Assembly: GCA_963699535.1 (NCBI GenBank)
Contig: CAVOUJ010000018.1
Coordinates: 16,417-80,416 of the forward strand
Direction: 5' to 3'
DNA: 64,000 nucleotides
Source of the DNA: an uncultured beta proteobacterium
Lineage (GTDB): Bacteria; Pseudomonadota; Gammaproteobacteria; Burkholderiales; SG8-39
Of the stretch, positions 7,897 to 62,601 are shown in pieces. Each line of letters begins with the position of its first letter. Positions within the stretch are counted from its first letter, which is position 1. A program made the translations under genes and the position numbers. The notes below the pieces were generated by a model, which worked only from the letters and a program-made list of their open reading frames with translations, had not been told where the DNA came from and made no database searches.

Positions 7897-9762
7897 TCAG
7901 GCTGCGGCGCGCGTCCCTGCGTCCGCACCGATCGTTAAGACCTTTGGTGAAGGCCGCTCGCGGTACAGCTCTTCCACGAGGTCCGCGCGGTTCTTCAGAA
8001 CCGCGCCCTGGTTGATCGAGCCCTTGTCGGTGATCTCGTGCATGTCGATCGAGGGCGGTGACTCCAGCAGGATCATGCGGACGATCCGGTTGGAGCTGCC
8101 GGTGCTGCCCGCAACCAGGCGCTCCAGCAGATTCTCAAAACGGGCGCGAACGCGCTCATCGCCGAGGACTTCCGAATCCGTGCCACCGCAGATATCCCGG
8201 CAGGCCGCGAGATTCGGAAAGACGAGCGCCGCGATGAAGTCCCGTTCGTGTCCCGCGATCACGACGTCGCGCACGTGGGGCGCCCCCTCCAGGATCACCT
8301 TCGCTCTCAGCGCCCCGACGTTGACCCAAGTTGCAGTAGAAAGCTTGAAATCCTCGGAGATGCGGCCGTCGAAGACCAGCCCCTTCAAGGGATCCGCGGA
8401 ATCGGCGAATTTCACCGCGTCGCCCATGCGGTAGAAACCTTCTTCGTCGAACGCGGCCCGGGTGAGTTCTGCTTCGTGAATGTAGCCTGGCGTGACGTTC
8501 GGCCCGCGCACGCGGAGTTCGATCTTTTCGCCGTTCGGGACGAGCTTCGCTTCCAGACCGGGAGCGGGAAGGCCGACGACGCCGGCGCGCCCGCCGGTGT
8601 CCCAGTTGCCGCACAACGCGAAGGGCGCCGTTTCGGTCGAGCCCAGTGCCGTGATAAGCGGAATGCGCTCGCCGCAGGTTTCGGCTGCAAGCCGCTCGAG
8701 CGCATCCCAGACGTTCTGGGACATGCCTGCTCCCGCGTAGAGCAGCATCGAGAGCTGGCTGAAGAATCTTTCCCGCAGCGCCGGTTCGCGCTGCAAATAG
8801 GGAATGAGATCCTCGTAACCCTTCGGGACATTGAAGTAGAAGGTCGGCGCGATTTCCCGAAGGTTGCGCACGGTCTTTTCGATCTCGCCGGGACCCGGCC
8901 TGCCGTCGTCTATGTAGAGCGATCCGCCGTTGTAGATCACCAGCCCGAAGTTGTGGTTTCCACCCGCGGTGTGGTGCCAAGGCGACCAGTCGAGGAGCAC
9001 CGGGGGGGTATCACCGAGAAACGCCAGCGTCTGAAGGATCATCTGCTGGTTGCTGCACAGCATGCGCTGCGTGTTGATCACGCCCTTGGGGAGGGAGGTG
9101 GAGCCGGAGGTGAACAGGATCTTGGCGACGGTATCGGGACCGACATTGTCGTGGGCTCGGTCCACGGCTGCAGTGGGACCGGTCTGTTGCAGCTCCGCGA
9201 AAGGGGTCGCGAGGCGCCCTTCGGGGGGCTCCCCCGCCACGACCAGTTCCGTCTCGGCCGGCACCGCGCCCGCGATCGCGCGCGCATAACGGCGCCCGTC
9301 CGTGGCGAATACCAGTCCTGGCTTGAGCAACGACAGGATATGCCGGAGCCGCCCGAAGTCGGAGGAGACGAGCGAATACGCCGGCGACACCGGCGCGAAC
9401 AGCACGCCCACATGCAGCGCGGCGAGCGAGAGCAATCCATGGTCGACGTCGTTCTCCGAGAGAATCACGACCGGCCGATTCTGCGACAGCCCTCTATCGA
9501 GAAGCGCCTGTCCGATCGACCGCACGACGCGCAGCGTGGCGGCGTAGTCGAGCCTCCTCCAATCGCCGGATCGGGCGCGGCCCGCGATGCAGATTCGATC
9601 GGGAGCAACGCGGGCCCAATGCAGGAGCCGCTCGGTGAGGGTCCGCGGATAGGGGCCGAGTGGATACGGCGACCGCAGATAGGTCACGCCGCCGGGAGCC
9701 TTCGAAACATCCATACCGATCGGCCCGAAATGCGTGCGCCTGAATGGAGCGGAGGTCGTCAC
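7897..9762 (-). CDS. fcs: Feruloyl-CoA synthase-like acyl-CoA ligase
   Basis: [50 protein letters not shown]; GTG start overlaps the upstream stop. Confidence 0.85.
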
Positions 9763-48746: not shown

Positions 48747-49829
48747 TCAAAGCCTCGCCAGAATGCGGAGGCCCTCGGCGATGCGCTCGATCTCGCGGAT
48801 CTTCAAAGCCTTGGCCTGCGAAAGCTCGGTCAGCTCAGGCAAGTGGAACATTCCACGCCCGGAGTCGCCGATGATGCTCGGCGCAAGGTAGACGAGCAGC
48901 TCGTCCACCACGCCCGCCTGGAGCAGCGAGCCGTTCAGCTTGGTTCCCGCTTCGACGTGGATCTCGTTCAGCTCCCGCCGCGCGAGTTCTTCCATCAGCT
49001 TGAAGAGCTCGACCTTGCCTCGGTCGTTCGGGATGATGACGATCTCCGCACCGGCCGACTTGAGCGCGGCGATTCTCTCCTCATCGTTCACGGCGCCGGC
49101 GATGAGCGTCTTCCCGTCCTTGAGAAGACGCGCCGAGGGTAGAGTCTCGAACTTCGAATCGACGACGATCTTGAGCGGCTGCCTCGGCGTGTCGATTCCG
49201 CGCACGTTGAGCTGCGGATCGTCGTCCCGGACGGTGCCGAAGCCGGCGAGTACCGCGCAGGCGCGCGCCCGCCAGCGGTGGCCGTCCGCCCTCGCCGCCT
49301 CACCCGTGATCCACTGGCTCTTGCCGTTCGCGAGCGCGGTGCGGCCGTCCAGGCTCGCCGCGATCTTCATGCGCACCCAGGGCCGGCCGCGCGTCATGCG
49401 CGCGACAAAGCCGATGTTGAGCTCGCGCGCCTCGTCTTCCCTCAAGCCCTGCTCGACCGCGATCCCCGCCGCGCGCAGCTTCGCAAAACCCGCGCCCGCG
49501 ACTTTCGGGTTCGGGTCCCGCATCGCGGCGACGACACGCGCAATGCCCGCCGCGACGATGGCGTCGGCGCAGGGCGGGGTGCGTCCGTGATGGCTGCAGG
49601 GCTCGAGGTTGAGATAGAGCGTCGCCCCGCGGGCCTTCGCACCGGCAGCCTGGAGCGCGAGCACCTCTGCGTGCGGCATCCCCGCCTTCTCGTGCCAGCC
49701 TTCGCCCACGACCGCGCCGTCCCTGACGATCACGCAACCGACGCGCGGATTGGGGGTCGTCGTATACAGGCCGCGCCCGGCGAGCGCCAGCGCCCGCCCC
49801 ATGAGCTCGTGGTCGGCGGCGGAGAACAT
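48747..49829 (-). CDS. ribD: Riboflavin biosynthesis deaminase/reductase
   Basis: [34 protein letters not shown]. Confidence 0.93.
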
Positions 49830-50312
49830 CACTTCGGCGGCGCGGCGCGTGCGCTTGCTGCCCGGCTTCTTCACCTCGAGTATCGCCTCGCGGAAGTCGT
49901 CCACGCGCTGGAAGTCCTCGTACACCGAGGCGAAGCGGATGTAGGCGACGTCGTCCATCTTCTTCAGCTCGCGCATCACCATCTCGCCGATGACGCGGCT
50001 CGGGATTTCGCGCTCGCCGAGCGCGAGGATGCGCTGCTCGATGCGGGTGATCGCCTCGTCGACGTACTCGGTCGGCACCGGCCGCTTGTGCAGGGCGCGC
50101 ATGAACCCGGTGCGGATCTTCTCGACCTCGTAGGGAACGCGGTTGCCGTTGGTCTTCACCACCATCGGCATGGAAAGCTCCACGCGCTCGTAGGTGGTGA
50201 AGCGCTTGGCGCAGGACTCGCACTGGCGCCTGCGGCGCGTGCTGTCGCCGTCCTCCGACTCGCGCGAGTCGATGACCGCAGTATCTTCGGCCTTGCAGTA
50301 AGGGCATTTCAT
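49829..50312 (-). CDS. nrdR: Transcriptional repressor NrdR (reads in-frame into ribD as assembled)
   Basis: [24 protein letters not shown] cone, [10 protein letters not shown]. Confidence 0.92.
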
Positions 50313-50389: not shown

Positions 50390-51682
50390 CTACGCCCCGG
50401 CCGCTTCCGCCGCGCGCTGGGCATTCGCGGTTTCAGCCACCCGGTATACGGGGAAGCGCGCGCAGAGCTCCTTCGTCTCGCCGGCCACGCGCTTCAGCGT
50501 TTTTTCGTCCTGCGGAGCATCGAGCACGTCGGCGATGAGGCTCCCCATGCGCCCGGCCTCGGCCTCGCGGAAACCACGGGTCGTCATCGCGGGAGATCCC
50601 AGGCGGATGCCGCTCGTCACCGTGGGTTTCTCAGGGTCGTTGGGGATGGCGTTCTTGTTGACCGTGATGTGGGCCCTGCCGAGCGCGACTTCGGCGTCGC
50701 GACCAGTGGTGCGCTTCGCGCGCAGGTCGACGAGGAACATGTGCGAGTCGGTGCCGCCGGAGACGATGCGCAGACCGCGTTCCTGAAGGGCATTCGCCAT
50801 CGCCCTGGCATTCGCCATCACCTGCTTCTGGTAGTCGCGGAACGCGGGCTCGAGCGCTTCCTTGAAGGCCACGGCCTTGGCGGCGATGACGTGCATCAAC
50901 GGCCCGCCCTGGAGGCTCGGGAAAATGCTCGCGTTGAGTATCTTCTCGTGCTCGGCTCCCGCCAGGATCAATCCGCCGCGAGGCCCGCGCAGCGTCTTGT
51001 GCGTGGTGCTCGTCACGAAGTGCGCGATTCCTATGGGGCTGGGATAGAGGCCGGTAGCGATCAGCCCGGCGTAGTGTGCGACGTCGGCCATGAACCAGGC
51101 GCCGATGCGGTCGGCGATCGCGCGAAAGCGCTTCCAGTCGATGACCCTCGAATACGAGGAAGCGCCGGCGACGATCATTCGGGGCCGGTGCGCGTTCGCG
51201 AGCCGCTCGACTTCGTCGTAGTCGATGCGCTCGTTCGCATCGAGCCCGTAGGCATGCGCCTGAAAGATCTTCCCGCTGATGTTGACCGAAGCGCCGTGGG
51301 TGAGGTGCCCGCCGTGGGCGAGCGACATGCCGAGGATCGCGTCGCCCGGCTTCAGCACCGAAAGATACGCCGCCTGGTTCGCCTGCGCGCCCGAGTGCGG
51401 CTGCACGTTGGCGTACTCGGCGCCGAACAGCTTCTTCGCGCGGTCGATGGCGAGCTGCTCGGCGATATCGACGAATTCGCAGCCGCCGTAGTAGCGCTTG
51501 CCCGGATAGCCCTCGGCGTACTTGTTGGTGAGCTGCGAGCCCTGAGCGGCGAGCACCGCGGGGCTGACGTAGTTCTCGGAGGCGATCAGCTCGACGTGGT
51601 CTTCCTGGCGCTGGTTTTCCTGCTGTATCGCCGCCCAGAGCTCCGGGTCGACTTGATGCAGGGTCTTGTTGGGATTGAACAT
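50390..51682 (-). CDS. glyA: Serine hydroxymethyltransferase
   Basis: [34 protein letters not shown]. Confidence 0.96.
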
Positions 51683-51750
51683 TTCTTGGAAACCTAGGGT
51701 GGGGGTGCGAGGGCGAATATTACCATCCCCAGTGTTTCCGGGACTCAGTT

Positions 51751-54700
51751 TCATCGGCCAGCGGCACGGTTCTTCTCAGACGCCTGTGCCCTTACTGCGT
51801 CGAAGATCTCCCTCGCCAGAATCGGAAACGCCGCGCTCTGAAACTCCCGGTCGTCCATGTAGCGGGTGACGATCTTGTCGTTCTCGGCCATGCGCTCGAT
51901 CATGAGGTCCTCGATCAGCTTGCGGATGCCGAGCTCGAACTTGTCGAGCGGATTGGCGAGCGCCGTCTGGATGACCTGCTCGTTCTTGGCAGGCCTTCTC
52001 CTTGATCTGCTGGAAGAAGAGGCGGTCTTCCTCGGTGAACTGGTGCCGAAGCGTTCGTTGAGCACCTCGATGATCTCGGACAGCGGCACCTTCTCGTCCT
52101 TGGCCTTGCCGGTGCCGACATCGGTCGGGCTCTTGACGTACTGCGCCTCGCCCTCCTTGAGCGTCGATCGCGCCCGAGAAGACGCGCTCCAGCCGGTAGT
52201 ACTGCAAGCGCCACCTCGTCGCCGACCTTGATCGATCGTCGTGTCGCGGTCGAGCGGCAGATGCGGCAGCAGGAACCGTCCGTAGCTGTAGAGCATCTCC
52301 AGGTCCGGATCGGCGTAGGGGATGATCTGGCTCAGGAACGCGTAGATCTTCACGTAGCCGCCGAGCTTCTCGCGGAACTCCTCGCGCTTGTCTTCGTCCT
52401 CGATCGCCTTGAAGCGGTCCACGGCCGGCTGCAGGTGCCGCTGCATGTGCGCGTGGTCGGCGGCGCTCTGCCGCTCCGTCGGCTTGTAGAAGACTCTGCG
52501 CGAAGGCCTCGACCTCGCTCCAGTGGTAGACCTGCGCCTGATCGAGCTCGTGCTTCAGCGCTTCGAGCTGCGCGGGATCGGACGCCTCCTGCCAGGCTCG
52601 GTCGTGTCGTAGTAGGGCTTGAACGCGCGGTAGATGTTCTCCGGCGTCGTTGACGAAGTCGAGCACGAACGGCGCGTCCTTGCCGGGAATCATGCGGTTG
52701 AGCCGCGAAAGCGTCTGCACCGCCTGCACGCCGTCGAGCCGCTTGTCCACGTACATCGTGTGCAGCAGCGGCTGGTCGAAGCCGGTCTGGTACTTGTTGG
52801 CGACCAGCAGGACCTGGTAGTCCGGCGAGTCGAAGCGCTCGGGCAGCTGCGCTCTCGCTGATCGGCTTGCCGGTGACGACGTCGGTGTTCATGCCCGGCT
52901 CGGTGTACTCGAGGCCCGTCTCCGGGTCGCGCACCGTGCCGCTGAAGGCCACCAGCGGCCGGATGTCGGTGTAGCCGTTCTCCGCGATGTAGCGCTCGAA
53001 CGCCAGCATGTAGCGCACGGCGTGCAGGCGCGACGACGTGACCACCATCGCCTTGGCCCGCCCGCCGAGCCGGTGCTTCACGCTGCGGCGGAAGTGCTCG
53101 ACCATCACCTCGGTCTTCTGCTCGATGTTGTGCGGGTGCAGGCTCATGAACTTGGCCAGCGCCCGCGCCGCCTTCTTCTTCGGCAGCTCGGGATCGTCCT
53201 CGGCCGCCTTGAGCAGCCGGTAGTAGGTGGCGTAGGTCGTGTAGTTCGTCAGCACGTCGAGGATGAAGCCCTCCTCGATCGCCTGCCGCATGCTGTAGAT
53301 GTGGAAGGCCTCCGGCTTGCCGCTCGGCGCCCGGCCGCCCGAACAGCTCCAGCGTCTTGCCCTTGGGCGTGGCGGTGAAGGCGAAGAAGCTCAGGTTCGG
53401 CTGCCGCCCGCGCGACTGCATGACCTGGTTCAGCCGGTCTTCCCAGTCCGGCTTCGCCCTCGTCGTTCTCGTCTGCCGCCGCGCCGAGGATCGCCTTCAG
53501 CTCGCGCGCCGTCTCGCCGGTCTGGCTGGAGTGCGCCTCGTCCACGATCACGGCGTACTTGCGCTTGCGCGATCGCCGCCTCCCACGCCTTCGCCTGCTG
53601 CCTTCTCCTCCGTCGGTCGCCTTCTCCTGGCTCTCGGCGCCGGCCGCGTGCAGCAGGCCGCGCAGCACGAAGGGGAACTTCTGCAGCGTGGTGATGACGA
53701 TCTTGGTGCCGTCGATCAGCGCCGCCGCGAGCTGCTTGCGAGTCCTGGTCGATCGCCTTGACCACGCCCTGCGCGTGCTCGATCTGGTAGATCGCGTCCT
53801 GAAGCTGCTGGTCGAGCACGCGCCGGTCGGTGATGACGATGACGCAGTCGAAGACCTTCGCGGTCCTGCGCGTCGTGCAGGCTCGCCAGCCGGTGCGAGA
53901 GCCAGGAGATGCTGTTGGTCTTGCCGCTGCCCGCCGAGTGCTGGATCAGGTAGTTGCGGCCCGGCCCTTCGCCGCGCGCCGCGGCGACGAGCTTCCGCAC
54001 CGCGTCGAGCTGGTGGTAGCGCGGGAAGATCATCGTCTCCTTGGTGACCCGCCGCTGGCCGCCCTTGCCGTCGTCGACCTTCTCCTCCTTCTTCTCGACG
54101 AACATGAAGTGCCCGAGGATGTCGAGGAAGCTGTCGCGCTGCAGCACCTCTTCCCAGAAGTAGCCGGTGCGGTAGCCGGACGGATGCTGCGGGTTGCCCG
54201 CGCCGCACTGCACCTCGCCCGGATGGCTGCCGCGGTTGAAGGGCAGGAAGTGCGTCTCCTCGCCGCGCAGCCGCGTGGTCATGTGGACTTCGTCCGGGTC
54301 GGCGGCGAAGTGCACCAGCGCGCGCGTCTTGAACTCGAACAGCGGCGCGCGCGGGTCGCGGTCCTCCTGGTACTGCCGCACCGGCATGGCGCCAGCTCTG
54401 GCCGGTGCCGGGATTCTTCAGCTCGCAGGTCGCGACCGGCAGGCCGTTCACCGCGAAGACGCAGGTCGACCGTGTCGTGCTTGCCCGGGATGGCAGGGCA
54501 CCTGGCGCGTGACCGTCAGCCGGTTCTTGCGCGTAGAGCGCCAGCACCTCGTCGTTCAGGCCGTGCGCCGGCTTGAAGTAGGCGAGGCGGAAGGTCTTGC
54601 CGTAGAACTTGAAGCCGTGCCGCAGGACGTGGAGCGTGCCCTTGAGGTCCAGCTCCTTGACCAGCGCGTTGAGGAGCAGGTCTTCCAGGCCCGCGCCGTG

Positions 54701-54881
54701 CAGCGTCTGCATCTCGGCCCAGAGCTTCGGTTGCGTCTCCTCGATGAAGCGAAAGGATTCGCGCCGGGAAGAGCGCGCGCTCCTCGTCCCATTCCGCAAG
54801 GTCGCCGGATTGCCAGCGAGACTTCTCCTTGAGGATCGTCTCGACATAGGTTTCAAACGCCTTTTCGTTGGTCTGGGCCAC
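51751..54881 (-). CDS. hsdR: Type I restriction endonuclease subunit R (many frameshifts)
   Basis: [57 protein letters not shown]. Confidence 0.88.
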
Positions 54882-54882
54882 G

Positions 54883-55395
54883 TCAGGACTTCCAAGTGAA
54901 GCGCACGCCGAGCTTCTCCAGCATCTCGAAGGTGTCGATGCAGGGAACCTCGAACGCGGCGCACACGTCCGGAATCTTGACCTCTTTCTTCGACTCGGGT
55001 GCGGCAACTTCCTGGGTCACCACCGTCAGCCCGTGCTCGCCGGCATGCGCGACCAGCCACCCGTCCGGCACCATCGCGAATTCCGCGAGGGCTTCAGGGC
55101 GATAGCGGTTCTGCGCTCCCGCCCAGCTGATGATCTTGCCGTAGCGGTCTCCGACCGTCTTGCTGTTTGTCGACTCGAAAAAAGTGGAAGGGGATTTGTT
55201 CTTCACCCATTCCCGCAGCTCGTCCTTGCCCTCTTCGATTTCCTTGCGGATTCGGTCGATGCTCGAGATGACGCCCTGTTTGTGATGCCACACCAGGCAG
55301 TCCCAGAAGCCCGGGCAAACATCGAACCTGTAGTAGCGGCGGTGCGCTTCCATCAGCACGCTCGCGTCGAGAAGATAGCGAGCGCGCCGCGCCAT
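54883..55395 (-). CDS. DUF4411 family PIN-domain protein
   Basis: YLLDASVL, YYRFDVCPGFW, DGWLVA, VVTQE, KIPDVC. Confidence 0.82.
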   Translation of the reverse strand: MARRARYLLDASVLMEAHRRYYRFDVCPGFWDCLVWHHKQGVISSIDRIRKEIEEGKDELREWVKNKSPSTFFESTNSKTVGDRYGKIISWAGAQNRYRPEALAEFAMVPDGWLVAHAGEHGLTVVTQEVAAPESKKEVKIPDVCAAFEVPCIDTFEMLEKLGVRFTWKS

Positions 55396-55396
55396 G

Positions 55397-56551
55397 TCAG
55401 AGACTGATACCCAGATCTTTCGCGTACTTGTCGAAGGTCACCCCATGCAGCCCGGTGAGGCTGTACGCCTCCCTGAAGAGCAGACGGCCTTCCTTCGCGG
55501 CGGACATCACCGCGCGCGCGAATCGCTTGCCCAGGCGGACGTTCTGGTTGTTGTAGAAATCGCCTCCGCCCTTTGCCTTCGCGGCCTGTCTGCGCTCGTC
55601 GGCCTGGTACGCCCGATAGAAATCGAAGAACGCATCGCGCCCGATCAAGTCCAGATCGAGCGCGCGCCGCGCGGCAACGATGGGGCTGACCTTGAATTCG
55701 CGCGCGAGTGCCTGGAAGGGTTCAGGCTGAGCTTTCGCACGCACCCAGAGTTCTCTGAGTTCTGCAGCCGGAACGAGAAACTCGGCCGCCACGCGGTTGC
55801 AGAAGACTTCACGCCGGTCGCCTTCCGCGTGAAGGTCCGGAAGATCGAAGATGCCGCCCTCGCCGATCCACAGGTGCGCCAGCTCGTGCGCGAGCGTGAA
55901 CATCTGCGCAGAACGCGCGTCCGCGCCGTTAATGAACACCAGCGGCGCGTACTCATCCGAGAGCACGAAGCCTCTGAACTCGCTCGGGTCGAGCTTGCGG
56001 TGCGTGTCGTTGCCCACGACGCCGTTGATGACGACGAGGATGCCAGCCGCTTCTGCCGCCTCCCGCAAGACACTCAGCGCTTCAGTCCACGTTCCTATCC
56101 GGCCCGCCCAGCCGTCGCCCATGCCGAGCGTCCGGCGAACGTTCCTTGCGACGGATTCGATGTTGTCTGCGAGCTTGGCAGCGCCGATGTACGACTGACG
56201 CTCATGTCCCATTTCAATCAAGTAGTCGCGCATCCAAGCCTGCCGGCGCTGCATTGTGTGCAGCGTATCGATCAGATTCGGACTGGCACGCCTGATCGGC
56301 TGGTCGCGGGCAGTCCTAAAGTCCGGGACCGGCAGCTTTTCCTCCGGCGGCTCGGACAAGAAGAAATACCCGAGCGGCGTCCACGTCTTCTTCGCCAGCG
56401 TCTCGAGCTGCTTGAGCGTCGGCTGCGCGTCGCCGGACTCCCACTGCCCGATCCGGGGGAAATAGCGCGCGAGCGCCTCGAGGCTGCGGCCGGAGCGCTC
56501 GATCGCCCAGCGGATCAGCTCGGGGTTGACGTTAATGCTTTGTTCGGCCAC
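55397..56551 (-). CDS. Xre-HTH + ImmA/IrrE (COG2856) zinc metallopeptidase
   Basis: N-terminal WESGDAQPTLKQLE HTH, FRGF, FTLAHELAH (HExxH), EVFCNRVAAEFLVP. Confidence 0.88.
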   Translation of the reverse strand: MAEQSINVNPELIRWAIERSGRSLEALARYFPRIGQWESGDAQPTLKQLETLAKKTWTPLGYFFLSEPPEEKLPVPDFRTARDQPIRRASPNLIDTLHTMQRRQAWMRDYLIEMGHERQSYIGAAKLADNIESVARNVRRTLGMGDGWAGRIGTWTEALSVLREAAEAAGILVVINGVVGNDTHRKLDPSEFRGFVLSDEYAPLVFINGADARSAQMFTLAHELAHLWIGEGGIFDLPDLHAEGDRREVFCNRVAAEFLVPAAELRELWVRAKAQPEPFQALAREFKVSPIVAARRALDLDLIGRDAFFDFYRAYQADERRQAAKAKGGGDFYNNQNVRLGKRFARAVMSAAKEGRLLFREAYSLTGLHGVTFDKYAKDLGISL

Positions 56552-56557
56552 GGGATT

Positions 56558-57940
56558 TCAGGAAACGCTCGCCACCTCAATCCTATTATCGTGGGTCTGA
56601 CCCCGCACGTCGATTTTGCCCGTGACTGCTGCGGTAATCAGGGCGGTGCGGTACTCCTGAAGGCGCTCGATGACCGCGTCCACCTTCAGCATCATGCGAT
56701 CGAGGTTCGCGGTCTCGTGATCCAGATAGTCGGCGATGACCGCTTGTTCGGAAAGTGGAGGAAACGGGAACGAGAAGTCCACAGCATGGCTGATGTTGAA
56801 CTGTTTTTGTGCCGCGCCGTATTGAACGATCTCGATCTGGTCACGGCCAATCTGAGAATTTAAGGCATACATCAACCACCGTGAATTGAACCGCTCGTGT
56901 CTGCGAACGATCATCATCGACGCGCAGTTGGCGCCTTCCAGTTCAGGAGGGACCACGGCAGCAACACCGGGATACCCGACACGCACGACAACCAAGTCCC
57001 CAGAGTTCAGTCGGCTCTTTCTCAACGGTCCATCACTCACTTCCGGCGTACATCTATCGCAATCCGAGGTATCGATGGAGCCCTCATGAATATCCCCGCC
57101 AAGCAAGAACGGAACGCCTTCATCGCTGACGTAACTCGAGGGGTTGACGACGACCCCAACAGTAATTCCGTCCGAGATATGCCGAAGGCGCCTTATATGC
57201 CAATGCTCAGGTACATCGCCAATCCATGCAATGCCGGACGGTTTGAATTTGCGCCTTGCGGCCAACAGATGGCCTCGAGCAACGACGCGCGAGACGAGCG
57301 CGGCACGTTTTTCCTTTAGCCGCTCGGTCAACTCGCGCTTCTTCGCGACCAGCGTGTCAATTCTTACGGTCTCAAAATCCAGGAAGTCGGCAATGGCGCG
57401 CTGTTCATCGAGCGAAGGCACGGGAAACCAAGCCTCGCCAATCGATGACTTTGGCAATCCATAACGCGTAATTCCGGTCGCAGCCATTTGAAACTGCTGG
57501 TTGACCGCAGATGCCTGCATAGTGCGCAGTAGAAACCTAGGAAGAAGAACGTCCTGCCTTGGCCGAATGACAGCGAGGTGATATCCGCAAACGAGGTCTG
57601 GCGCCGATTCAACGACAAGCGCAGGTACTGCGATATCGTTCCACTCTTCCGAGTCTTTGGTAATCAGTACATCACCAACTCGTAAAGCGAAGCGAACGAT
57701 CTCATCTGGGGTGGCCGTCGTTTCCATAAGGCCCATGTCGGGGCGAATCTCGTCGTTGTAATAGACGTCCGTATAGTTACAGAGCCGCACTGGCAACTCG
57801 TCGTCCGATGGCACCTTGTCCACATTGCTAACCCAAGATGTCGCCGCCGTTTTCAACCGCTTCACGTCCCAATACTCCGGTACGTTGCCAAGCCATTCGA
57901 CGCCGCTCGGTTTGTATCGTGAGTAGGGCTTGCATCGCAC
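56558..57940 (-). CDS. hsdS: Type I R-M specificity subunit S
   Basis: Duplicated YKPSGVEWLG/FKPSGIAWIG, PSLDEQ/PPLSEQ, ALITAAVTGKIDV; visibly lower GC. Confidence 0.92.
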   Translation of the reverse strand: MRCKPYSRYKPSGVEWLGNVPEYWDVKRLKTAATSWVSNVDKVPSDDELPVRLCNYTDVYYNDEIRPDMGLMETTATPDEIVRFALRVGDVLITKDSEEWNDIAVPALVVESAPDLVCGYHLAVIRPRQDVLLPRFLLRTMQASAVNQQFQMAATGITRYGLPKSSIGEAWFPVPSLDEQRAIADFLDFETVRIDTLVAKKRELTERLKEKRAALVSRVVARGHLLAARRKFKPSGIAWIGDVPEHWHIRRLRHISDGITVGVVVNPSSYVSDEGVPFLLGGDIHEGSIDTSDCDRCTPEVSDGPLRKSRLNSGDLVVVRVGYPGVAAVVPPELEGANCASMMIVRRHERFNSRWLMYALNSQIGRDQIEIVQYGAAQKQFNISHAVDFSFPFPPLSEQAVIADYLDHETANLDRMMLKVDAVIERLQEYRTALITAAVTGKIDVRGQTHDNRIEVASVS

Positions 57941-57968
57941 GGCTAGGCCTTTTCGTGCCTGATATCGC

Positions 57969-60083
57969 TCACGCTGTAGTCTCCTTCAGCATTGCGACGA
58001 TTTCGGTTTCCAGGATTTCGATGTCCGTCTCGATGTCCTCCAGTGGCCGCGGCGGTTCATAGCGGTAGAAATGCCGGTTGAGCGGGATTTCGTAGCCGAC
58101 TTTGGTCTTGCTCTCGTCGATCCAGGCATCCGGCACGTGCGGCAAGACTTCGCGCTTGAAATAGGCCTCGATGTTTTCTTTCAGCGGCACGTTTTCGGTG
58201 TCGCGCAGATCCGGATCGGGCTCGGGGTTGCCGTTGCGGTCGCGGCAGATTTCGGCGGTTTCGTCGCGCTCGCCGAGCGCGTTCAGGACGGCTTTGAGTT
58301 CCGCCGCGTTCAGACGCACGCCGCGCTTCGCGGTCGACGGCCTTCAGGTCGGTCAGGAACTCCTTGCGGTCTTTGTAGAGCTTCTCGCCGGTCTCCTCGC
58401 CAAAGTCGCGGAGCAGCTCGCGGATGGCTTCTTGCCGCTGTCTGACCGTCTTCGATTTCTTCGCAGCCGCGCTTCTTCGTTCTTCTTGTTGCTGGTAGCG
58501 AGATTCTTGAAGCCGGATTCCTCGTTCCAGCCGCGCGATGCGCTCGGCGGTCGCCTGAAAGTTCAGCCGCAGCGGACGCTCGACGGTGATCTTGTGGAAG
58601 CCGAAGTCCTCGTTGTCGAAGACCTTGCTGACGACGAGCGTCTTTTCCTGTGCCGTCGATCGGTGAACTTGCGCGTCTCGCCGTCCTGGAAGTCGCCGTA
58701 GATGCGCGTGATCTCGCCGATCTGGTCGGGCTCGCCCTCGTCCTTGTCGCCGATGCTTGTTGCGTTTGTTGCCGAGGCTCTTCCTCATCTTGACGAAGAA
58801 CTGGCGCGCGTCGATGAGCTGAATCTTTCCCTTGCGCTGCTGTCTCCTTGCGGTTGGTGAGCACCCAGATGTAGGTCGAGATGCCGGTGTTGTAGAAGAG
58901 CTGGTCGGGCAGCGCGACGATCGGCCTCCAGCCAGTCGTTTTCGATGATCCACTGGCGGATGTTGCTCTCGCCGCTGCCGGCGTCGCCGGTGAAGAGCGG
59001 CGAGCCGTTGAAGACGATGCCGATGCGGCTGCCGCCCTCCTTCGGCGCGCTGCATCTTCGAGAGCATGTGCTGGAGGAAAAGCAGCGAGCCGTCGTTGAT
59101 GCGCGGCAGTCCGGCGCCGAAACGGCCGTCGTAGCCGAGCGTGTCGTGCTCCTTCTCGATGAAGCTCGCTGCTGCTGTTTCCACTCCACGCCGAACGGCG
59201 GATTGGCGAGCATGTAGTCGAACGTGCACTTCTTGCCTTTCTCGTCGCGGTCGAACGCCGTCCTTGGTGAAGCTGTCGCCGAGCACGATGTTGTCGGCAT
59301 CCTCGCCCTTGATCAGCATGTCGGACTTGCAGACGGCCCAGGCTTCGTCGTTCCAGTCCTGCCCGAAGAGATGCGGATTGGCGTCTGCGTTGAGGTCGCG
59401 GATGTACTTTTCTGCGACCGACAGCATTCCGCCGGTGCCGCAGGCAGGGTCATAGATAGTTTTCACGACGTGGCTACGCCGCAAGTCCTTTTCCGGAGAA
59501 AGCAGCAGGTTCACCATCAACTTGATCACCTCGCGCGGCGTGAAGTGCTCACCTGCCTCCTCGTTCGACTGCTCCGCGCCGATGCGGATCAGCTCCTCGA
59601 AGACGTAGCCCATCTGCACGTTGTCCACGTGCTCGGACGAAAGGTCGAGACTTGCGAACTTCTTGACCACCTCGAAAAGCAGATTCTTCTCGCGCCATGC
59701 GTGCGATCTGCTCATCGAAGGCGAACCGCTCCATGATGTCGCGCACGTTTGCCGAGAAACTTGTTGATGTAGCCGTTGAGGTTGGGCGCGAGCTGGTTGG
59801 GGTCGTCGAGCAGCTTCGCGAAGTCGAGCCTGGAAAGGTTGTAGAAGGGCCGCTGGGTGATCTTCTGCAGCAGACTGCGGACGACGTTCTCCGGCTTGCT
59901 CTTGATCGCGGGATATTCCTCAAGGACCTTCGCCTTGGTGGACGCCAGCAGGCAATCGAAGCGCCGCAGCACCGTCAGCGGCAGGATCACCTTGCGGTAT
60001 TCATTGCGCTTGTACGGTCCCCGGAGCAGGTTGCAGATGCTCCAGATGAAGTTCGCGAGCTGCGAATGAGTTTCGGCGTTCAT
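57969..60083 (-). CDS. hsdM: Type I R-M N6-adenine methyltransferase M (many frameshifts)
   Basis: ILPLTVLRRFD, GEHFTPREV, YDPACGTGGML, NPPFG, KVGYEIP. Confidence 0.88.
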
Positions 60084-60158
60084 TCCTTGCTCTTATGGCT
60101 CGCCAAGCTACGATTGTAGCGGTTTGCCGCCGCGACGCCGCCCGTTCAGACTGCTGAT

Positions 60159-60251
60159 CTACTTCCTTGCCTCGACCTGCGCCGCCTCCCACAGGCGCCT
60201 TTCCAGCGCGTGGTTGGCGTCGTCTTTCTCGGTCGGTGCGACCCAGCGCAT
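60159..60251 (-). pseudogene. 30-aa remnant resembling the N-terminus of another HsdM
   Basis: RBS GGGGAGG then MRWVAPTEKDDANHALERRLWEAAQVEARK*; LE.RLW.AA is the HsdM N-terminal motif. Confidence 0.55.
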
Positions 60252-60264
60252 GAAGCCCTCCCCT

Positions 60265-60567
60265 TCAAGCAGCCTTCAGCACCTCGACCTCCCGGTCGAG
60301 CTTGCCCGCAATCGCGTCCTTCGCGACCTCCAGATCGTAGTGCGACTGGAGGTTCATCCACATCTGCGCCTCCATGCCGAAGAATTTTCCGAGCCGCAAC
60401 GCAGTGTCGGCGGTGACGGCGCGCTTGCCTTGGACGATTTCGTTGATGCGTCGAGGCGGCACCGCGATGCCCTTGGCAAGACGGTGCTGAGTGATGCCTA
60501 AGGGCCGAAGAAACTCCTCCGCGAGAATCTCTCCGGGGTGAATGGGAGGCAACTTGCGCTTGGCCAT
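60265..60567 (-). CDS. higA: HigA family antitoxin (orphan)
   Basis: [33 protein letters not shown]. Confidence 0.9.
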
Positions 60568-60636
60568 GATGTTTCTCCGTCAGCGCCGGGTGGGTCGTCA
60601 ACGCAGCCGGGGCCGATGCGTTTGTCGGGTGGTGTC

Positions 60637-61176
60637 ATGAAAACACAGCCCCGTACTGCAGACGGCATCGATGCACGCATTGTACTTGTGCGCGGCCACA
60701 AGGCGATACTCGACCGGGATCTTGCCGACCTCTACAGGGTCCCTGTGCGGTCGCTCAATCAGGCCGTGACGCGCAACCTCGATCGTTTTCCGGAAGATTT
60801 CATGATTCAGCTCGAGTGGGAAGAGATGGAATCTTTAAGATCACAGATTGTGATCATAGACAGGAGCCCGGAGCGCGGCGGCCGCCGCGGCATGCACCTC
60901 AAGTACCCGCCTCGCGCCTTCACCGAGCAGGGCGTCGCCATGCTTTCCTCCGTGCTGCGAAGCAAGCGCGCGGTGCAGGTCAACATTGAGATCATGCGCG
61001 CCTTCGTGCGCCTGCGTGCTCTGCTCGCCTCCAACGCCGATCTGGCGCGAAAGTTCGCCGCGCTCGAAAAGAAATATGACGCCCAATTCAAAACCGTGTT
61101 CGACGCCATCCGAGAACTGATGGCACCGCCGGAGCCGAAGTCCAGGCGCCGGATCGGATTCATTTCCGGAGACTAG
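60637..61176 (+). CDS. ORF6N (KilA-N-related) DNA-binding domain protein
   Basis: [44 protein letters not shown]. Confidence 0.85.
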
Positions 61177-61181
61177 GGAAG

Positions 61182-62601
61182 CTACTCCCGTGCCGTCAAG
61201 GCCGACGCGTCCCAACCCCCACCCAGCGCTCTCACGAGCCCCACCGCGGCGACGAGCCTCCGTCCGAGTATCCCCACCGCGGTGCGCTCGTTGTTGAGCT
61301 GCGCCGTCTGCGCGACAGCCACGTTGATGTAGCTCACGATGCCGGCCTTGTACTGGTTGGTCGTGAGTTCCACAGCTTGGCGCGCCGCGCGCACCGCCTC
61401 GTCCTGCACCTTCGCTTCCTCTTCGAGAATGCGAAGAGCCGCAAGGTTGTCCTCGACCTCGCGGAATCCGGCGAGCACGGCCAGACGGTATTCGGCCACG
61501 GTGGCATCGTAGGAGGCGATCGCCTCCTCGGTCTGTGCGCGCCGCAGGCCCGCGTCGAAAAGGGACTGCACGAGCGCCGGGCCGATCGACCAGAACCTGC
61601 TCGGCGCGGCGAACCAGGTGGCGGCATCGGCGCTGCGCGAGCCGTATACGCCCGACAGCGTGAGCGACGGAAAGTAGGCCGCCTTGGCGACACCGATCTG
61701 GGCGTTGGCGGCAGCGACCCTGCGCTCGGCCGCGGCGATATCCGGGCGGCGCTCGAGCAGCTCGGAGGGCAGACCGACCGGAATGCCCGGCATCTTCAGG
61801 TCGCAGGCGCGTCTCGGAAATGGAGACGTCCGAAGGCGGCTTGCCGACCAGCACCGCGATCGCGTTCTCGAGCTGCGCGCGCTGCACGCCGATATCGATC
61901 GCCTGCGCCTGGGTGCTCTTCAATTGCGTCTCGGCCTGGACGACGTCCACTTTCGGGACCACGCCGGCCGAGTAGCGGTTGCGCGTCAGCTCGAGCGTTC
62001 TTTCGTAGGCTGCCGCGGTCTCGTCGAGGAGCCGCTTCCCCGCGTCCAGCACCCGCAGCTGAAGGTAGTTCGACGCCAGCTCGGACTGCGCCGAGAGGCG
62101 CGCCGCGGCAAGATCGGCCGCTCCCGCCTGCGCGCCTGCTTCGCTCGATTCCACCGTGCGCCGCAGGCGTCCCCACAAGTCCGCTTCCCAGGCGGCACCG
62201 ACGCTCGCCGAGCGGTTGGTGATCACGCTTCCTGCGGTCGTTCCCCCGATCGCGCCGGAGGGCGAACGGCTGCGCGTCGCCGAAACGTTGGCGTCTACGG
62301 TCGGGAAATAGGCCGAGCGCGAGGCGTCGACCAGGGCCCGCGCCCGGCGGAACTGCGCCTCGGCCGCGAGCACGTTCTGGTTCGAGACCTCGACCTGCTC
62401 GACGAGGGCGTTGAGATGCGGATCGCCGAAAGCCTCCCACCACTTCCCGCCTATCTCCTCGTCGCGCGGTTGCGCCACTTTCCATTCGCCTGTTCCCTTG
62501 TACGCCTGGGGGACTGCAGCTTGGGGCCGGACGTAGTCGGGCCCTACAGCGCATCCCGCGAGCGGAAGGAAGACGGCGAGTGCGAAAGCCCGGCGCTTCA
62601 T
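61182..62601 (-). CDS. RND efflux outer membrane lipoprotein (NodT/OprM family), one frameshift
   Basis: LAGCAVGPDY, WEADLWG, PSELLERRPDI, ALGGGW. Confidence 0.88.

Follow-up and report, generated by a model that had tools for sequence, protein, structure and literature searches.

A probable VapBC52-type toxin-antitoxin cassette between hsdS and hsdR of an acquired type I restriction-modification island

The gene pair considered here is best introduced through VapBC52 (Rv2514c-Rv2515c) of Mycobacterium tuberculosis, the structures of whose complex (9vzy, 9vzz) were reported in June 2026 (PMC13273310). VapC52 is a PIN-domain tRNase that cuts anticodon or variable loops, and its antitoxin VapB52 is composed of three domains: an N-terminal helix-turn-helix (HTH) domain that binds the outside of the toxin dimer, a middle domain that is an IrrE/CapP-like zinc peptidase, and a C-terminal helical domain that covers an active site (PMC13273310). 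VapB52 and VapC52 form a 1:2 complex with a dissociation constant of ~267 nM. Single-stranded DNA (ssDNA) induces VapB52 to cleave off its own N-terminal domain, probably at a conserved 'FR' motif, and this frees VapC52; the cleavage is abolished in H216A/H220A, and Cys229 acts as a 'cysteine switch' that auto-inhibits the antitoxin (PMC13273310). In a 64,000-nucleotide stretch of DNA from an uncultured beta proteobacterium (GenBank assembly GCA_963699535.1, contig CAVOUJ010000018.1; hereafter the window), two genes between hsdS and hsdR of a type I restriction-modification (R-M) operon encode an HTH-peptidase protein and a DUF4411 PIN protein. We consider it likely that they constitute a type II toxin-antitoxin cassette of the VapBC52 type, in which a self-cleaving peptidase antitoxin holds a tRNA-cutting PIN toxin. 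This reading would assign a mechanism to a pair that is still annotated as 'DUF4411 family protein' together with 'ImmA/IrrE family metallo-endopeptidase' or 'XRE family transcriptional regulator'.

The second protein of the pair matches the DUF4411 family (PF14367) over all of the profile (positions 1-159 of 159, E = 2.2e-52, 177.5 bits against a cut-off of 23.5). Its AlphaFold2 model has a mean predicted local distance difference test (pLDDT) score of 95.2, and the best Foldseek matches of this model are VapC/FitB toxins. When compared with the toxin chain of the M. tuberculosis complex (9vzy_D, named 'DUF4411 family protein' in the Protein Data Bank), the single sequence gives E = 1e-7 and a profile of 24 homologues gives E = 2.3e-24. 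The acidic residues D10, E52, D111 and E129 do not vary among the 24 aligned homologues, and their spacing parallels that of D6, E48, D99 and E117 in VapC52. In both systems, the PIN toxin is a DUF4411 protein bearing these four acidic residues, and the antitoxin gene lies directly upstream of its gene. No NCBIfam model matches the PIN protein. PADLOC-DB v2.0.0 holds no DUF4411 model, and 0 of its families, RmrT models included, match the protein at E <=0.01.

The first protein of the pair carries a Peptidase_M78 domain (PF06114, E = 2.1e-16) with an HELAH motif, preceded by a weak HTH_3 match at residues 13-55. Against the antitoxin chain 9vzy_A, a 393-residue 'HTH cro/C1-type domain-containing protein', the single sequence scores E = 7.5e-26, and a profile of 29 homologues scores E = 9.2e-68 in an alignment that joins profile positions 6-383 of 386 to residues 2-388 of 393. 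The zinc site (H222-E223-x-x-H226 and E248) is invariant in 29/29 homologues. At the boundary of the N-terminal and middle domains lies the motif D-F78-R79-T, whose arginine is present in all 29 homologues and is preceded in all 29 by F, Y or L. The AlphaFold2 model (pLDDT 86.3) consists of a five-helix N-terminal domain, a peptidase middle domain and a four-helix C-terminal domain. Its confidence is low in three places, namely residues 80-85 just after R79 (six residues with pLDDT <50), the loop that follows HExxH (237-243) and the stretch before the C-terminal domain (325-330). The model thus predicts that the conserved junction motif adjoins a flexible linker at 80-85, with a second linker at 325-330.

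These features follow those of VapB52 closely: an antitoxin of ~390 residues, the same order of domains, HExxH and a zinc-site Glu, an F-R motif at the junction, and a conserved helical domain at the C terminus. The structural neighbours agree as well. Foldseek places the model beside IrrE, PprI-ssDNA, PrpR, CapP and C.Csp231I, which is the set of likenesses listed for VapB52 (PMC13273310). The resemblance of the N-terminal domain to C.Csp231I is seen both in a profile match to 3lfp (E = 6.7e-5) and in a Foldseek match to 4jcy.

By analogy with the M. tuberculosis system, we propose that the DUF4411 toxin is a metal-dependent RNase of the PIN fold, most likely one that cuts the anticodon or variable loop of tRNAs. 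Its putative antitoxin combines an Xre/C-protein-like HTH domain at the N terminus, an IrrE/CapP-like zinc peptidase in the middle and a small helical domain at the C terminus. One antitoxin molecule would clamp a toxin dimer, with the N-terminal domain on the outside and the C-terminal domain over an active site. A nucleic-acid trigger, probably ssDNA, would then cause the peptidase to sever itself behind the N-terminal domain, at the conserved (F/Y/L)-R junction. The complex would disassemble, and the freed toxin would be expected to cut tRNAs and halt translation, leading to growth arrest or abortive infection. Homology is thus the basis for ascribing to the window pair the binding of toxin by antitoxin, self-cleavage upon ssDNA and the cutting of tRNA.

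The original prediction for this locus, made from the letters alone, had envisaged a protease-controlled PIN toxin that fires when the R-M system is inhibited or DNA is damaged. A protease-controlled PIN toxin that responds to ssDNA or DNA damage is supported by what is reported for the homologous VapBC52 pair (PMC13273310), which the window proteins match over their full length with its catalytic and junction motifs kept; a dedicated R-M guard is not supported. The same prediction knew of no characterization of the pair as an R-M guard. The pair itself has been characterized since June 2026, but a guard role is still uncharacterized: our literature search, whose coverage did not extend to the 145 untested candidates of Payne 2024, returned no bench work on the pair in that capacity.

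Four points weigh against the VapBC52 assignment or limit what it implies. First, sequence identity to VapBC52 is low, above all for the toxin, for which the single-sequence match is the E = 1e-7 given above. Second, the cysteine of the proposed switch is missing: F235 aligns with C229 of VapB52, Cys occurs at this column in 0 of 29 homologues, and in a single one of them it is found at another place in the loop that follows HExxH. Because this residue is absent, the activation step, and perhaps the trigger, may differ from those of VapB52, and the cysteine-switch model may fail to extend to the whole family. Third, protection against phage D29 was observed only when the toxin was overexpressed alone, and co-expression of the antitoxin abolished it (PMC13273310), so that defence by the intact pair is unproven even in VapBC52. 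Fourth, hsdR and hsdM of the window are not open as assembled, and co-expression with a working R-M system is therefore not to be assumed. The cysteine switch is a regulatory detail of one member rather than a property of the fold, and we therefore file the window pair as a variant member of the VapBC52 type. A further difference is the location of the window copy inside a type I R-M operon. The VapBC52 paper leaves such a context undiscussed; the word 'restriction' appears in it two times, neither of them about the surroundings of the genes (PMC13273310).

Other described systems share parts of this architecture. RosmerTA (RmrT/RmrA) and the 'ImmA/Rosmer' antitoxin node of the NetFlax survey of 2023 likewise join an HTH and an ImmA/IrrE peptidase in the antitoxin and have swappable toxins, and PIN-like partners of this node were recorded (PMC10440598). 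However, the RmrA likeness of the window peptidase is weak: 16 RmrA models of PADLOC match it, the best with E = 3.4e-13 and 47 bits over residues 34-323, which is no better than the match of the capP model (6.6e-13). The DUF4411 protein matches no RmrT model. Gene order is variable in the Rosmer node (PMC10440598), whereas it is fixed, antitoxin first, in the pair studied here. NCBIfam offers for the peptidase only a sub-threshold match to 'spr1629 family repressor/antitoxin' (35.8 bits, where the cut-off is 335).

CapH/CapP of cyclic oligonucleotide-based antiphage signaling systems (CBASS), IrrE/PprI-DdrO and ImmA-ImmR share with the window protein the peptidase fold and a logic of ssDNA or DNA damage (7t5t, 3dte, 8sln). 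These peptidases differ in that they cut a separate repressor and so switch genes on. In the window pair, the HTH substrate is fused to the peptidase, and the output would be the release of a bound toxin. Neither a separate CapH repressor nor a CBASS operon is present at the locus, where the neighbours are hsdS and hsdR. Finally, a study of gene neighbourhoods predicted in 2017 that DUF4411.1 proteins and HTH-DUF955 fusions form 'three-component' systems, and remarked on the coupling of some PIN-like genes to type I subunits (Matelska et al., PMC5499597). That pairing is the same as the one found here, but it was a prediction only.

To place the pair in a wider context, we compiled a census of 68 loci that bear the PIN gene, drawn from three samples (locus and genome labels are our own). 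Sample A contributed 11 loci found by sequence search with one genome per species; a twelfth locus, L013, keeps only 24 PIN codons. The 17 loci of sample B derive from Pfam hits among 401 genomes belonging to the phylum of the window, with five genomes omitted that had fragmentary or sub-threshold hits. Sample C supplied 40 loci out of a second phylum (401 genomes), restricted to full-length hits with E <=3.2e-39, and leaves out ~47 weaker or partial rows. DUF4411 matches occurred in 21 of the 401 genomes of the first phylum (over the cut-off) and in 73 of the 401 genomes of the second.

The two genes are strictly coupled. All 67 loci that can be assessed have a peptidase gene immediately upstream of the PIN gene; the one other locus of the 68 ends 395 nt upstream. 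The spacing between the two reading frames varies from -38 to +9 nt, a 4-nt overlap being the most common junction, as measured in the window and in 28 loci of samples A and B with a PIN start (27 PIN loci and the 30-codon L013 remnant, L004 excepted). This pairing is far beyond chance.

Type I genes adjoin the pair in 17 of the 68 loci (5/11 in sample A, 3/17 in sample B and 9/40 in sample C), or in 18 if the hsdR of L040, 6.6 kb distant, is counted. For sample C, type I genes were sought by phmmer with 18 queries from samples A and B, and the nearest open reading frames (ORFs) of the other loci were examined by Pfam; distant hsd families further off could have escaped this search. Two weaker DUF4411 hits outside the 40 loci examined (G555:C8 and G683:C12) lie <100 nt from an HSDR_N match, and the type I share over all hits may consequently be somewhat higher. 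In eight loci (L002, L022, L036, L038, L054, L057, L059 and L076), as in the window, the pair occupies the slot before hsdR on the same strand. It follows hsdS in seven of these and in the window, and in L036 it follows hsdM, no hsdS having been identified. In three more loci (L007, L009 and L064) it comes immediately behind an R-M-S operon.

Restriction-type neighbours of other kinds accompany the pair in another seven loci. It is flanked by type III res and mod genes in L023, one on each side; XamI and a methylase lie near it in L040, an MmeI-like methylase in L061 and an N6_N4 methylase in L066. In L063 and L067 (pair ~7980-9626) it has a large Eco57I-like methylase (~1350 aa) on one side and an SNF2-PLD helicase (~1130 aa) on the other, and in L011 such a helicase lies downstream with no recognized methylase upstream. 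The setting of these last three loci is a two-gene restriction-like or DISARM-like one, distinct from type I.

To gauge this association we used the 608 HSDR_N matches found in 280 of the 401 genomes of sample C. With a neighbourhood of 21 kb and genomes of ~3.5 Mb, ~0.9% of positions are near hsdR, a background that gives the 9 of 40 loci of sample C a binomial P of ~1e-10. Over all three samples (17 of 68), the enrichment beside type I genes is ~25-fold. Even against a generous background of 3%, 17 of 68 gives P ~1e-11. These P values are overstated, because related genomes are not independent, yet the enrichment is large despite this kinship.

Enrichment of this kind counts in favour of a back-up to restriction. 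It might be a guard that, like PrrC, fires when HsdR or HsdM is blocked by an Ocr- or ArdA-like inhibitor, or it might be an amplifier triggered by ssDNA or DNA fragments that arise from phage DNA through restriction and RecBCD action. The nine slot positions that include the window, the three positions after R-M-S operons, the seven loci with other methylase or restriction neighbours, and the ssDNA trigger of the homologue (PMC13273310) are all compatible with such a role. PrrC/RloC, DarTG2 and other 'guilt-by-embedding' cassettes resemble the window pair in lying between hsdS and hsdR and in an output that is likely to be tRNA cleavage. However, PrrC is reported to be almost exclusively embedded in type I R-M loci (Payne 2024, 10.1101/2024.01.29.577857), whereas the pair is not confined to them. 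In 51 of 68 loci no type I gene is nearby, and many of these copies sit among housekeeping genes. In addition, neither window protein has a domain like the ABC-ATPase sensor of PrrC/RloC by Pfam, PADLOC or NCBIfam.

The phylogeny of the peptidase likewise argues against a fixed partnership. In a FastTree phylogeny of 68 peptidases (the window and 67 loci, L010 and L051 omitted; support values are SH-like only), the type I label changes 14 times, at least 11 of these changes being forced by supported branches. Shuffled labels change 16.1 times on average, and 73 of 500 shuffles gave a count as low, so that type I context shows no more clustering than shuffled labels do. Near-identical peptidases are found inside and outside hsd loci (L038/L052 and L042/L044). 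Type I context has been gained and lost repeatedly and is scattered across the tree.

Moreover, the position is not specific to this pair. The same slot, a hotspot already described in print, also houses DarTG2 (PMC12255303). Because DarTG2 and other unrelated cassettes share it, a hotspot by itself would lead one to expect enrichment. This slot serves independent defence cassettes as a general landing site. Given the 51 loci that lack type I genes, the scattered label and the unrelated occupants of the slot, we conclude that the pair is an autonomous cassette in a known defence hotspot; the data do not support a dedicated R-M guard of the PrrC kind. We regard any R-M-linked back-up function as quite unlikely. 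The more specific notion that antitoxins of R-M-embedded copies sense the by-products of restriction (DNA ends, and the ssDNA that HsdR and RecBCD produce from phage DNA) appears similarly doubtful. If it were true, the operon would act in two stages, with restriction first and tRNase shutdown should DNA breakdown continue, and loss of the cysteine switch in this clade would mean a different trigger threshold. Two questions have become testable: whether the intact pair defends against phage, and whether its placement in R-M operons reflects more than a hotspot effect.

Another reading is that the cassette is an addiction module only, one that stabilizes islands and plasmids by post-segregational killing and has no part in phage defence. 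The architecture is that of a classical type II system, with the antitoxin first and overlapping frames, and among 72,556 plasmids 50 carry the PIN gene, half of which (25) are conjugative; the pair also occurs on ICE-like (integrative and conjugative element-like) or conjugative elements in L005 and L034. The many copies among housekeeping genes and the failure of co-expressed intact VapBC52 to protect against phage D29 (PMC13273310) would also suit this explanation. On the other hand, addiction alone is disfavoured by the strong enrichment beside R-M and other defence genes, which besides the type I loci include CRISPR-Cas, SIR2 and TIR proteins, reverse transcriptase and Gabija-like genes. 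An antitoxin that cleaves itself upon a signal suits a sensor better than it suits passive decay, and HTH-peptidase antitoxins of the RmrA type occur in defence systems (PMC10440598). We therefore view a role in addiction only as unlikely. A cassette type that has so far been studied in one pathogen thus proves to be both widespread and mobile.

A third possibility concerns the likeness of the N-terminal domain to the R-M controller C.Csp231I, which is also reported for VapB52 (PMC13273310). The HTH-peptidase might be a C-protein-like regulator that times the expression of hsdR, with the PIN protein as a passenger. Its gene is located just upstream of hsdR, and L013 retains the peptidase in the slot even though the PIN gene has been replaced. 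We find this very improbable, given that the peptidase is tied to a PIN gene in all 67 assessable loci, three quarters of which lack hsdR, and that the pair also follows the last gene of R-M-S operons in L007, L009 and L064, where there is nothing downstream to control. A toxin-antitoxin pair of the VapBC52 type remains the reading that we favour.

The arrangement of the locus is given in Table 1. On the minus strand, the order is hsdM, hsdS, HTH-M78/IrrE peptidase, DUF4411 PIN and hsdR, all co-oriented and tightly spaced as first noted: 6 nt separate the hsdS stop from the peptidase start, 1 nt separates the peptidase and PIN genes, and 1 nt separates the PIN TGA from the GTG start codon of hsdR at 54881. 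Only the gap between hsdM and hsdS is wider (~28 nt). The specificity subunit matches the PADLOC Specificity_I models with E = 1.1e-103 and 3e-101 (residues 1-451 against 2-443 of 448) as well as Pfam Methylase_S, and the hsdM fragments match PADLOC MTase_I (E = 1.9e-102) and Pfam N6_Mtase. A consensus scan of 51500-60700 revealed neither promoter-like sites (2 versus 1.2) nor terminator-like sites (11 versus 7.5) in excess of shuffled sequence. The pair is probably transcribed together with the R-M operon.

Table 1. Features of the island and its genes, in window coordinates
Feature	Position	Strand	Remark
Inserted island: type I R-M, embedded pair and ORF6N gene	51702..61201		between glyA and outer-membrane efflux gene
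hsdR, type I restriction subunit	51751..54881	-	frame broken 20 times as assembled
Probable VapC52-type DUF4411 PIN-like toxin gene	54883..55395	-	170 aa, intact
Probable VapB52-type HTH + IrrE/M78 zinc-peptidase antitoxin gene, three-domain	55397..56551	-	384 aa, intact
hsdS, type I specificity subunit	56558..57940	-	460 aa, intact
hsdM, type I methyltransferase	57969..60083	-	frame broken 13 times as assembled
ORF6N-domain gene, PADLOC candidate PDC-S05	60538..61176	+	Pfam ORF6N E = 2.1e-27; PDC-S05 E = 1.2e-48

The operon and the pair belong to a horizontally acquired island. Two genomes of the same genus (L015 in G005 and L019 in G002) match the window up to 51701 and then, within ~60-170 nt, match it again from 61202 onward. 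Because the glyA side joins the outer-membrane efflux gene directly in these two genomes, the segment between is an insertion. The ORF6N gene, divergent from hsdM, forms its right end. The whole genome contains a single DUF4411 gene, and no second copy of the island's hsdR or hsdM is present in it.

The original prediction took the pair to be co-transcribed with the R-M genes; its gene order holds, but it overlooked that hsdR and hsdM are not open frames. The intact HsdR of L013 (978 aa; Pfam HSDR_N/SWI2_SNF2/T1R_D3-like), aligned by tblastn, tiles the hsdR region in alternating frames. Relative to it, hsdR has 22 insertion or deletion (indel) events, 20 of them frame-breaking, of which 19 are insertions of +1 or +2 outside homopolymers. 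Relative to the intact 707-aa HsdM of L002, hsdM has 15 indel events, 13 of them frame-breaking and 12 of these insertions. Together this amounts to 33 frame-breaking indels, 31 of which are insertions, mostly of single bases outside homopolymers. Once the extra bases are removed, hsdR has 0 stops in 977 codons and hsdM has 0 stops in 708 codons, with amino acid identities to the relatives of 85% and 80%, respectively. Of the nucleotide differences in hsdR, 355 of 525 fall at codon position 3, a share similar to that in the intact peptidase gene (168/249). This stop-free, third-position-biased divergence led us to reject the idea that hsdR and hsdM are ancient pseudogenes.

A uniform rate of assembly error can be rejected as well, since the breaks are clustered. 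Against the 33 events in 5.07 kb of hsdR and hsdM (~6.5/kb) stand 2 in the neighbouring housekeeping and efflux genes (~4.9 kb) and none in the pair (1.67 kb, relative to L002). The density in hsdR and hsdM is incompatible both with the background of the neighbours (Poisson P ~4e-28) and with the zero of the pair (P ~2e-5). The hsdS gene, not alignable to that of L002, is a single open frame of 460 aa. Counts of switches in the phase of third-position GC content (GC3) per 3-kb block place the hsdR block at about the 90th percentile, a noisy measure that does not separate broken genes from short ones. The breaks are probably consensus artefacts that arose at stretches common to co-occurring variants of the island. 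Such variants exist, as demonstrated by L002 and L013, which have similar hsdR and hsdM genes combined with another hsdS or another embedded gene. Real and very recent damage is a possible alternative.

The two breaks counted above in neighbouring genes are both +1 insertions. The nrdR and ribD genes form one ORF of 521 aa (48747-50312), and four of five relatives of the same genus lack one base at ~49835; this fusion is probably another +1 insertion of the assembly. The outer-membrane efflux gene (NodT/OEP-like, 61182-62601) is split by a +1 insertion at ~61804 relative to a same-genus genome.

Several related loci depart from the arrangement in the window. The nearest relative of the window outside an hsd locus is L004, a Burkholderiales contig that carries a relic of the same island (L004:8658-10425), in which the initial 92 nt of hsdM run directly into the end of hsdS. 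Its peptidase gene is intact, its PIN gene has a deletion of ~88 nt, hsdR is missing, and MazF and HipBA genes lie nearby. A close relative of the island, L013:621-3599, keeps a 384-aa peptidase with an intact HExxH in the hsdS-hsdR slot, but after 24 codons its PIN gene gives way to a 600-aa ORF with SLFN_AlbA_2 and HATPase_c_4 domains. This represents either a partner swap or the insertion of a cassette that destroyed the toxin. In L036:7118-10246, the interval from hsdM to hsdR holds two tandem HTH-M78 peptidase genes; the PIN gene comes after the second of them, and AbiEi/AbiEii genes are located downstream. Decayed toxins beside intact peptidases were observed in L021 (in-frame TAG), L029 (in-frame TAA) and L012 (an insertion sequence by a PIN gene with an altered C-terminal end). 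The genome of L005 (G423, Longimicrobiales) carries three DUF4411 genes. Finally, some hsd loci hold other cassettes beside the pair: a Gabija-like set (DUF2813/OLD-TOPRIM ATPase and UvrD helicase) and DMP19 in L057, a KwaB-like gene in L038, AAA_21 and DUF4276 genes in L064, and AAA_13 and RhuM genes in L068.

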